A stretch of DNA of 567 nucleotides. Origin: Candidatus Hydrogenedens sp. (lineage in GTDB: Bacteria; Hydrogenedentota; Hydrogenedentia; Hydrogenedentales; Hydrogenedentaceae). This document shows, in pieces, positions 1-567 of this stretch. The stretch's first letter is position 1. Every line of letters begins with the position of its first letter. Made by a program: the position numbers and the translations under genes. The notes under the pieces are model-generated. The model saw only the letters and a program-made list of their open reading frames with translations. It was not told where the DNA came from and made no database searches. The stretch lies in the NCBI GenBank assembly GCA_049968235.1, contig JBMFRC010000060.1, forward strand, positions 1 to 567, written 5' to 3'.

Positions 1-316
1 ATGTTTTACCGATATATTTAAGATTCACGGCATGCGTCTTGTATTTCTTGGGTACCCCTGGATTTTCATAAATTTCTCCGATAGGCTCCACCTCATACAC
101 TTCAGTTCCGTAAGTTATGTATGCAAGTATATCTTTCCCCGAAAAATAAATTCCGCCCGGTGCGCAGTCGCCTGATGGATAGAACGGCATAATATCCTCA
201 TTATACCCTTCTTTGTATATTAAACCGTTATGTCCTCTTGGGTCAACGATTTTGAAGAATTTTAATTCTTTTCCTTTTTTTGTTTTTGTTTTTGTTGTTT
301 TTGTTGCTGTTTCCAT
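1..316 (-). CDS. Ankyrin-repeat-family protein, N-terminal conserved module. It resembles the N-terminal domain shared by Mimiviridae ankyrin-repeat paralogs. The CDS is partial: the start codon is inside the window and the 3' end runs off the left edge.
   Basis: The reverse complement from 316 downward reads ATG GAA ACA GCA ACA AAA ..., an open frame for 105 codons to the window edge. Translation: METATKTTKTKTKKGKELKFFKIVDPRGHNGLIYKEGYNEDIMPFYPSGDCAPGGIYFSGKDILAYITYGTEVYEVEPIGEIYENPGVPKKYKTHAVNLKYIGKT. An in-frame TAA sits 3 codons upstream of this ATG (minus-strand ...aat aaa TAA aaa gct ATG), and the only other in-frame upstream ATG runs into a stop. The start is therefore well defined. 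The coding part is clearly richer in G+C than the flanking spacer. The motif GGIYFSGKDILAYITYGTEVYEVEP matches, from memory, the 'NGLHFTDIxNIFxYLxYGxYLREVxLP' N-terminal signature of Mimivirus and Megavirus ankyrin proteins. Confidence 0.75.
   Translation of the reverse strand, partial: METATKTTKTKTKKGKELKFFKIVDPRGHNGLIYKEGYNEDIMPFYPSGDCAPGGIYFSGKDILAYITYGTEVYEVEPIGEIYENPGVPKKYKTHAVNLKYIGKT
275..309 (-). repeat. Imperfect hexanucleotide microsatellite, (TTTTTG)n on the + strand and (CAAAAA)n on the minus strand. It lies inside the 5' end of the CDS and encodes a Thr/Lys-rich low-complexity tail.
   Basis: Perfect tttttg units sit at 277..282, 283..288, 289..294 and 298..303, interrupted by ttg/ctg triplets. 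On the coding strand this reads ACA GCA ACA AAA ACA ACA AAA ACA AAA ACA AAA AAA, giving T-A-T-K-T-T-K-T-K-T-K-K. The 6-nt unit is a multiple of 3, so slippage would change the tail length without shifting the frame. Confidence 0.7.
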
Positions 317-431
317 AGCTTTTTATTTTTATAAGTTTAGCATTATTAATTACACTGCAAATATATATATATTCTTTTTCTATTTGCAACTTTATTTTGT
401 TAAAAAAATGTTAAAAATATTAAAAATAAAA
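317..431 (-). promoter_or_regulatory. Extremely AT-rich intergenic spacer between the two minus-strand genes. It is the presumed promoter and 5'UTR region for the downstream ankyrin-domain gene.
   Basis: The spacer is 115 nt with only about 16 G/C by my count (about 14% G+C), against much higher G+C in the flanking coding sequence. It contains an (AT)6 TATA-like run at 361..372, about 45-55 nt upstream of the ATG. It contains a tandem ttaaaaat direct repeat at 411..418 and 420..427. The minus-strand sequence AAAATAAAGTTGCAAA (complement of 383..398) lies about 70-80 nt upstream of the ATG. No exact Mimivirus early motif AAAATTGA is present. Confidence 0.4.
361..372. repeat. (AT)6 dinucleotide repeat in the intergenic spacer. 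It could be a TATA-like promoter element.
   Basis: atatatatatat is seen directly at 361..372. It lies 45-56 nt upstream of the minus-strand ATG (316). Confidence 0.5.
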
Positions 432-457
432 AATAAGTAGGGATATCCCTACTTATT
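432..457 (-). terminator. Perfect 26-bp palindrome (aataagtagggatatccctacttatt). It can form a hairpin of at least 10 bp at the 3' end of the upstream ankyrin gene. It is a candidate Mimiviridae-type hairpin transcript-termination and polyadenylation signal, or alternatively an intrinsic terminator.
   Basis: Positions 432..444 are the exact reverse complement of 445..457; the pairing breaks at 431/458 (a/c). The TAG stop (complement of 449..451) lies inside the 3' arm. On the minus strand the palindrome is followed directly by ttttattttta (complement of 421..431). The + strand downstream (cattgcatc) is not T-rich, so the element is oriented for minus-strand transcripts. Confidence 0.6.
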
Positions 458-567
458 CATTGCATCTAAAAGCTTAATAACATCCTCGTGTTTGTATGTT
501 TCAGCCCAATTGCGTATATATTGTACGTCTGCCCCCGCATCAATTAGCAGCTTAACAACGTCTGTGT
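449..567 (-). CDS. Ankyrin repeat protein, C-terminal end. The CDS is partial: its 5' end lies beyond the right edge, and the TAG stop is complementary to 449..451.
   Basis: The reverse complement of 449..565 translates without stops to TDVVKLLIDAGADVQYIRNWAETYKHEDVIKLLDAMNK*. 'TDVVKLLIDAGADV' is the canonical second helix and loop of an ankyrin repeat (xxVVKLLLEaGADvN). 'HEDVIKLL' is a degenerate terminal half-repeat. The gene is co-oriented with the downstream gene, and the stop codon is embedded in the palindrome. Confidence 0.8.
   Translation of the reverse strand, partial: TDVVKLLIDAGADVQYIRNWAETYKHEDVIKLLDAMNK

Follow-up and report, generated by a model that had tools for sequence, protein, structure and literature searches.

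A head domain shared by phage and giant-virus ankyrin-repeat proteins, and its predicted resemblance to small ADP-ribosyltransferases

What is a gene whose product opens like the ankyrin-repeat proteins of giant viruses doing on a contig assigned to a bacterium, and what might its opening domain do? The contig, JBMFRC010000060.1, is 567 nucleotides (nt) long, and we refer to this whole stretch as the window. It is binned to a Candidatus Hydrogenedens metagenome-assembled genome (MAG) and carries a truncated member of a large protein family that we define below by its N-terminal domain, the head domain. In the reading that we prefer, and hold with moderate confidence, the window is a fragment of an uncultured phage carrying the start of a head-plus-ankyrin gene, in which the head would be a minimal NAD+-binding module of the ADP-ribosyltransferase (ART) fold and the ankyrin repeats would provide targeting.

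We found a 105-codon open frame at 316..2 on the minus strand, which starts with an ATG at 316-314 and runs without a stop off the left end of the contig; base 1 lies outside any of its codons. The translation, METATKTTKTKTKKGKELKFFKIVDPRGHNGLIYKEGYNEDIMPFYPSGDCAPGGIYFSGKDILAYITYGTEVYEVEPIGEIYENPGVPKKYKTHAVNLKYIGKT, consists of exactly the residues quoted in the initial annotation and is identical to a 105-residue partial hypothetical protein in NCBI, encoded on a 567-nt contig of a Candidatus Hydrogenedens MAG. The gene has the following features, with the basis for each in brackets.

2..316, minus strand: 5' part of the head-domain gene, 105 codons (translation; identical NCBI partial protein; homologs at 69-76% identity)
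269..316, minus strand: N-terminal K/T-rich tail, residues 1-16, METATKTTKTKTKKGK, specific to the window copy (tandem DNA repeats)
2..268, minus strand: compact alpha/beta head domain, residues 17-105, related to Pfam DUF7666, predicted ART fold (profile family and predicted structure)
230..232, minus strand: His29 codon, domain position 13, 94% conserved, candidate NAD-binding His and proposed equivalent of Arr His19 (conservation; extended hhalign; putative equivalence)
146..157, minus strand: codons of G54-G55-I56-Y57, the GGIY of GGIYF; Tyr57 is domain position 41, 92% conserved, candidate equivalent of Arr Tyr49 (conservation; hhalign pairing of Y41 with Y49)
62..64, minus strand: Asn85 codon, domain position 69 (in the family N 44%, D 28%, E 16%), end of a beta-hairpin, in the register of Arr Asp84 (hhalign; conservation)

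The tail is indeed repeat-encoded, as had been proposed: tandem repeats at 269-311 (TTTTTG in 3.3 copies, plus periods of 9 and 15 nt) encode residues 1-16. Nearly all relatives lack this tail and start with MKYYK or MKFYK, and reading the sequence directly we found no in-frame ATG, GTG or TTG between 316 and the head domain. The tail, being encoded by repeats, may be prone to slippage. Pfam detected no Ank repeats inside the 105 residues, and the contig ends at ...KYIGKT, exactly at the junction between domain and repeats. The collections that we scanned held no longer copy of the window contig.

To place the protein, we began from its relatives. A word-indexed search returned, besides the identical entry, five relatives at 69-76% identity, four of which are 161-171 residues long and have Ank Pfam matches after the head domain. 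In an exhaustive profile search the family, defined by profiles A3/A4 and clustered at 50% identity, comprised 1,212 cluster representatives at E<=1e-3, of which 177 passed E<=1e-10. The window protein matched a 30-sequence family profile at E=4e-30 over the whole domain of about 88 residues, and the head domain lay no more than 35 residues from the N-terminus in 155 of 162 matched stretches. We number the domain from Glu17 of the window protein (position 1) and call a position highly conserved when it is kept in at least 84% of 189 members. The column table of these 189 members gave 18 such positions (K6, H13, Y18, G21, N23, D25, F29, P31, C35, G38, G39, Y41, F42, G54, V60, Y67, K75 and K77), and the window protein keeps them all. 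Conservation reached 97% at G38 and G39, 95% at D25, 94% at H13 and at N23, 93% at C35, 92% at Y41 and 92-96% at K75 and K77, and position 69 was N, D or E in 88% of members. The family consensus, ...GGLYFT..NI..FL.YG..IREV.LP.DA.VY...K.KADKIILG, is essentially the motif that the initial annotation had ascribed to giant-virus ankyrin proteins.

The head domain is followed by repeats of several kinds. Among 111 full-length members, Ank repeats occurred downstream of it in 64 and DUF4116 in 14. We also read 39 metagenome loci carrying relatives at 39-77% identity. In these, 26 of the 28 genes that reach a stop codon encode a head followed by 2 to about 13 ankyrin repeats, and in the other two (locus L014, 655-1911, and L016, 2-1168) the head precedes a 30-residue repeat, AVAQYCPDKLDxEKFNWEExSW, in about 10 copies, which adds a third type of repeat partner to ankyrin and DUF4116. 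Proteins of the window clade are mostly short, about 160-310 residues. The genes are also multi-copy: the fetched loci hold 70 head-domain open reading frames (ORFs), up to four per stretch of 20 kb or less, and close relatives come in sets of 2-4 paralogs within a fetched stretch. The gene immediately upstream of the relative in L001 also encodes a head domain, and in L003 four head-domain genes stand consecutively.

The head domain is outside every profile library searched: the window protein had no significant match in Pfam, NCBIfam or PHROGs, so that the earlier statement that the domain has no assigned function holds for these three libraries, and a lead to the ART fold is now available from predicted structure. 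PADLOC gave no match for 47 family members. The only recurrent Pfam match was DUF7666 (PF24703), which 23 of 50 divergent members hit, the best of them at E=9e-5; the matches spanned model positions ~4-84 of 95, and the individually shown scores were 12-20 bits, against a gathering cut-off of 27 bits. A match to DUF5758 (PF19062) was marginal. The window protein had no DUF7666 match even at E<=10. By these scores, the window family is best described as a sister group outside the curated DUF7666, which itself has no assigned function, and a literature search found no paper that mentions DUF7666.

We then built an AlphaFold2 model of the head domain from a 47-sequence alignment. The model had a predicted local distance difference test score (pLDDT) of 95.4 and a predicted template-modelling score (pTM) of 0.84, and consists of strands at 4-8, 21-24 and 40-43, a helix at 47-53, a hairpin at 56-68 and strands at 76-88. 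When it was searched with Foldseek against BFVD, 29 matches were found at E<=1e-3, and all were giant-virus ankyrin-repeat, DUF4116 or uncharacterized proteins, which bears out the earlier suggestion of a Mimiviridae-type ankyrin head domain. The sources include L26 and R267 of Acanthamoeba polyphaga mimivirus (APMV), Megavirus, Moumouvirus, Tupanvirus, Edafosvirus and Marseillevirus-like viruses, among others. Query-normalised TM-scores were 0.68-0.88, most of them 0.76-0.88, at 19-31% sequence identity and with Foldseek E values down to 1e-6. At E of about 0.02 the same search listed a phage 'DUF7666 domain-containing protein' and a phage pentapeptide-repeat protein.

Among ADP-ribosyltransferases, the model scored 5.9 with Arr, 5.5 with Tpt1, AcrF11 and PARP15, 5.2 with diphtheria toxin and 5.0 with CARDS toxin; OspC3, PARP4, Scabin, the pertussis and heat-labile toxins, RES toxins, DarT, Tse6/Tne2 and C3 matched lower. 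The structural alignments covered 65-81 of 89 residues at 2.3-3.1 A, and the predicted model has the split beta-sheet of the ART fold. H-type enzymes ranked above R-S-E types, which fits the conserved His of the head domain. The model thus suggests that the head domain resembles a very small ADP-ribosyltransferase of the ART fold. The GGIYF motif of the head domain resembles the G-x-G-I-Y-F-A motif of PARPs.

The top-scoring enzyme, Arr, is an unusually small ADP-ribosyltransferase (about 16 kDa) with the triad H19-Y49-D84 (PMC8120803). With the Arr sequence checked against 2HW2 and 9IBA, the two proteins compare as follows.

His motif: head domain G-H13-N-G; Arr L-H19-G-T
Tyr motif: head domain G-G-I-Y41-F-S; Arr N-H-I-Y49-I-T
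Hairpin: head domain VYEVEPIGEIYE-N69-P; Arr IFIVEPEGAIED-D84-P
Last strands: head domain KYKTHAVNLKYIGK; Arr SYRTREPVWIVGE
His-to-Tyr spacing: head domain 28; Arr 30

In hhalign comparisons with Arr the hairpin matched at P=0.02-0.04. A relaxed alignment extended over 78 columns and put Y41 on Y49 and the head-domain E-N-P on the D-D-P of Arr that contains D84, with H13 one residue off H19. In sequence, then, the conserved His (94%), Tyr (92%) and third position (N, D or E in 88%; Asn in the window) appear in the order of the Arr triad and at similar spacing. Since the triad of ParT is R-Y-N (PMC8120803), an Asn at the third position has a precedent. We treat the resemblance to Arr as a lead and not as proof, and the protein is not a member of the Arr family. 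Our literature search found no paper linking giant-virus ankyrin proteins or DUF7666 to the ART fold, and a survey of viral NAD and ADP-ribose systems does not mention ankyrin (PMC9503650). A Mimivirus Ntox19 domain fused to ankyrin (PMC3482391) was considered and set aside, since the head domain does not share its motif (D, H, DxxxR, E, HxxF; BECR fold).

How might such a protein work? Read along the minus strand, the window carries the tail end of one ankyrin gene with its terminator, then an AT-rich spacer that presumably contains the promoter, and lastly 105 codons from the start of a second gene. This second gene would encode a two-module protein of the multi-copy family, an 88-residue N-terminal head and then 2 to about 13 ankyrin repeats, with the array of the window copy lying beyond the contig end. 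The head, on the predicted model a minimal ART-fold module, may bind NAD+ through H13 (H-x-G), the G38-G39-x-Y41-F42 strand (G-G-[IL]-Y-F) and the Asn, Asp or Glu at the end of the hairpin. The ankyrin array would pick the target, so that each paralog would direct ADP-ribosylation, or NAD+ or ADP-ribose binding, to a different host or rival molecule. Action would presumably fall in early infection, and the phage replication or early-type gene regions described below would fit host takeover or counter-defence, for which T4 Alt/Mod and AcrIF11 offer a parallel (PMC12421852). NAD+ binding, catalysis and ankyrin-based targeting are predicted functions only. On this model the ART fold would appear here in a minimal form and in a fusion with repeats that are both new. 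A bolder extension, which we offer as possible though doubtful, is that the head, at about 88 residues, is the smallest catalytically competent ADP-ribosyltransferase, and that the giant-virus ankyrin/DUF4116 families and their phage counterparts are batteries of NAD+-dependent effectors in which the repeats programme the targets and the module has been exchanged between viruses of bacteria and of eukaryotes.

Several results weigh against an ART-fold enzyme. Foldseek found no match for the head-domain model in the PDB, and HMMER searches of the PDB with the family profiles returned nothing relevant. Homology to Arr at the sequence level looks good by eye, yet hhalign did not lift it above shuffled controls: 3 of 40 block-shuffled Arr alignments scored as high as the real match. 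No ART family appeared in Pfam searches of the window protein or its relatives, which gave only sub-threshold DUF7666. At the third triad position the window protein, like 44% of the family, has Asn, and no acidic residue is strictly conserved. Cys35, conserved at 93%, and the invariant N23-x-D25 have no counterpart in known ART motifs. We saw no genes related to NAD or ADP-ribose (macro, NADAR, ARH) adjoining the head-domain genes. Finally, paralogs in L034 (903-1844 and 2624-3265) and L043 (1688-3532 and 7036-8859) have no His...N-x-D...Cys segment, while they retain a strand and helix, 'G-x-[IV]-x-F-AKEDILAFL', plus the hairpin. Even were the intact copies enzymes, these segment-deleted ones would probably not be.

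Much of this evidence would suit an alternative, the main rival to the ART-fold enzyme and in our estimate a rather unlikely but serious one, in which the head has an ART-like fold and acts as a non-enzymatic docking or adaptor domain. It would couple the ankyrin array to one constant partner, for example a nucleotide ligand or a machine of the host or virus, much as the C-terminal PRANC/F-box domain does for poxvirus ankyrin proteins. An adaptor would account for a position 69 that varies among N (44%), D (28%) and E (16%) in place of a strictly conserved catalytic acid, for the persistence of the His-to-Cys-deleted paralogs in L034 and L043, and for the missing sequence link to active ADP-ribosyltransferases. 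It sits poorly with the conservation pattern: polar and small residues typical of a pocket are strongly kept across the phage and giant-virus branches at an overall identity of ~25-30%, and conservation of this sort is more typical of an active or ligand site than of a protein-protein surface.

The conserved Cys invites a further explanation, that the head is a different enzyme built on a Cys/His/Asp thiol set (a peptidase, deamidase or transferase) and that its ART-like topology is convergent or uninformative. C35 (93%), H13 (94%) and D25 (95%) are among the best-conserved residues, a conserved Cys does not belong to known ART triads, and the lack of a Foldseek match in the PDB would be in keeping with this view. 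We nevertheless regard it as improbable, as the order His...Asp...Cys within 23 residues, placed on loops of an 88-residue domain, fits no thiol-enzyme family that we can name.

Whether the window is phage, giant-virus or bacterial DNA was judged from the surroundings of its relatives. We found that close relatives (57-77% identity) sit amid phage replication and recombination genes, not in giant viruses. On L001, an 88-kb contig, the neighbours include a Sak4-like annealing protein (1.7e-50), a DnaB-like helicase, a primase and a DNA helicase. Across L012, L024, L014, L034 and L043 they include a RecE-like exonuclease, a RecT-like protein (1e-57), an SbcC-like protein, a primase (6e-119) and a sigma factor (6e-33), as well as an HNH-annotated PHROG. 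The Ignavibacteria MAG contig L002, the only hit in a scan of GTDB genomes, carries an N6/N4 methyltransferase, RadC, a sigma-70 factor, a dUTPase and a SNF2 helicase. A narrow-alignment scan of viral contigs gave two loci, and the 126-kb IMG/VR contig L004 has one relative. Searches of INPHARED phages by tblastn (with the window protein and the family consensus) and by blastn gave no match. Genes of the type found in nucleocytoplasmic large DNA viruses (NCLDVs) were not seen beside close relatives.

Some neighbours in these regions are worth recording in their own right. In L004 (9487-10564) the start of the head-plus-ankyrin gene shares 14 nt with an HD-domain phosphohydrolase gene, and a 430-residue FtsK/SpoIIIE-like ATPase is encoded 6 kb downstream. 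Runs of small paralogous ORFs with the N-terminal pattern '...H..YN.H......C.CG' adjoin head-plus-ankyrin genes in L020 (527-5760) and L043 (3708-5540); they form another multi-copy family within these phage regions.

A distant member, P0204, has different surroundings. It is listed in 38 contig-index blocks, and we read 24 contigs that carry it. On the giant-virus-like contigs L006, L007 and L008 it is accompanied by a family-B DNA polymerase with zf-C4pol, two protein kinases, a dUTPase, a weak ubiquitin match and a faint DUF4116 match; head-domain ORFs number four within 20 kb on each of L006 and L007, and two on L008. The head-domain family therefore spans phages and giant viruses, and the window is in the phage branch, because its close relatives adjoin phage genes and the distant P0204 lies on giant-virus-like contigs.

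The rest of the window is occupied by three further features, all on the minus strand.

449..567, minus strand: 3' part of the preceding gene, in the same orientation, which closes in an ankyrin repeat, ...TDVVKLLIDAGADVQYIRNWAETYKHEDVIKLLDAMNK; stop codon 451-449 (translation; Pfam; BLASTP)
431..458, minus strand: intrinsic terminator of the upstream gene, with a perfect 12-bp stem, a 4-nt loop and a U-run (terminator scan; fold energy)
317..430, minus strand: AT-rich intergenic spacer, ~20% G+C, presumed location of the promoter (composition; sequence)

The last repeat of the upstream gene matched Pfam Ank at E=1.1e-3 and 19.6 bits, just under the cut-off of 21.1 bits, and by BLASTP the end of this gene matched the ankyrin repeats of head-domain proteins in related loci (2e-7). 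It is probably a tandem paralog of the head-plus-ankyrin family, given that the upstream neighbour in L001 also has a head domain and that L003 has four such genes in a row. With a fold energy of -15.7 kcal/mol (z = -5.0), matched by none of 200 shuffles, the hairpin at 431-458 is an intrinsic terminator of bacterial type, and it overlaps the upstream stop codon at 451-449. The two genes are ~130 nt apart. We found no Shine-Dalgarno sequence before the ATG of the head-domain gene, and sigma-70-like sites occurred at chance level (2 against 2.7 expected). A Bacteroidota-type promoter element, TATATTTG (TAnnTTTG, -7-like; 365..358, minus strand, ~42 nt before the ATG), was also considered; it says little about the host, since 0.9 such matches are expected by chance. 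Rfam had no match in the window.

These observations bear on the origin of the contig. The initial annotation implied a giant-virus locus, and this does not stand: close relatives are flanked by phage genes and the window has a bacterial-type terminator. The corresponding explanation, that the contig is a mis-binned NCLDV fragment and its protein an ordinary Mimiviridae ankyrin paralog, could draw on the match in fold and motifs with proteins of Mimiviridae and the Klosneuvirus group, the low G+C of the window and the presence of distant members on a giant-virus-like contig. We judge it very unlikely, as every relative above ~55% identity with readable surroundings adjoins phage genes (a sigma-70-type factor, RecT/RecE, Sak4), the window has a canonical bacterial intrinsic terminator, and the giant-virus proteins are only 19-31% identical to the head. 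The window contig is more likely phage DNA than Hydrogenedens DNA. It and the contig of its best-characterized relative, which is binned to an Ignavibacteria MAG, are probably both phage DNA, and therefore the taxonomy of the bin should not be read as the origin of the gene.

The initial annotation also pointed to two G-x-I-Y strings as the trace of a partial internal duplication. Both strings are present (G31-Y34 and G54-Y57), at an interval of 23-24 residues and not the 27 given. Two G.IY matches arose in 0.4% of shuffles of the window protein, and hhalign weakly pairs H-x-G-h-x-Y with P-G-G-h-Y-F, yet a duplication is hardly credible: G.IY occurs at the second site in 98 of 189 members but at the first in only 16 of 189, the pattern there being G-x-x-Y with its third position variable; profile-profile comparison was not significant for the two segments (P=0.066, probability 0.8%) or the domain halves (P=0.44); and in the predicted model the strings fall in different elements of one compact, non-repetitive domain. 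On this profile self-comparison and the family conservation we rejected it.

If the preferred reading of the head as an ART-fold module holds, it would matter well beyond this contig, for which the result is modest. In Mimivirus-like giant viruses few paralog families are as large as those of the ankyrin-repeat proteins, and to our knowledge no role has been established for them. If the head is an NAD+-using module of the ART fold, each paralog would become a testable effector, with a catalytic head and target-selecting repeats. The same design would then exist in phages, where small ADP-ribosyltransferases such as T4 Alt/Mod and AcrIF11 serve host takeover or counter-defence, and it would be a clear added case of one module common to viruses of bacteria and of eukaryotes. 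The family has at least 1,200 clusters at 50% identity, and thousands of 'hypothetical proteins' would gain an annotation from a Pfam or PHROG entry made for it.

Among known systems, tankyrase also joins ankyrin repeats to an ART domain, in the reverse order, with ankyrin N-terminal and PARP C-terminal. Its catalytic domain exceeds 200 residues and has a strict H-Y-E triad, and the protein has a SAM domain in addition and is of eukaryotic cellular origin. The PRANC domain of poxviruses is C-terminal and helical and recruits an SCF ubiquitin ligase, whereas the window head is N-terminal, mostly beta and unrelated to it. In architecture the two are alike: poxvirus ANK/PRANC proteins too form viral multi-copy families in which a single small, conserved domain stands at one end of an ankyrin array (PMC4353913). 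AcrIF11, an anti-CRISPR ADP-ribosyltransferase of phages and plasmids (PDB 6KYF), has no sequence similarity to the head and stands alone, without a repeat array.

Arr (PDB 2HW2 / 9IAF; PF12120) is likewise a small single-domain protein, and its H19...Y49...D84 compares with H13...Y41...N/D69 of the head, just as the head-domain 'IFIVEPEGAIEDDPN' resembles 'VYEVEPIGEIYENPG' of Arr. It differs in that neither the window protein nor its relatives match PF12120, the sequence similarity not being significant, and in that the head has a conserved Cys and an N-x-D motif, both of which Arr lacks. Conversely, the head lacks the C-terminal helix that forms the rifampin cleft of Arr; it ends where the Arr core ends, and in its relatives the ankyrin repeats then follow.

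The nearest relations are viral. DUF7666 gives nearly full-length matches in divergent members, with all individually shown scores below the 27-bit cut-off. The ankyrin and DUF4116 proteins of Mimiviridae and the Klosneuvirus group (APMV R267, L26 and L696; Megavirus, Moumouvirus, Tupanvirus, Edafosvirus) have the same predicted fold as the window head, and share with the window family the conserved motifs, the N-terminal place before ankyrin or DUF4116 repeats and the multi-copy paralogy. The two clades differ in their signatures, YEVEP.GE.YENP and K.KAHAVNLKYIG in the window clade against IREV.LP.DA.VY..P and K.KADKIILG in the giant-virus clade. The giant-virus proteins are only 19-31% identical to the window head, and the window clade is found in phage genomes, not in those of giant viruses.

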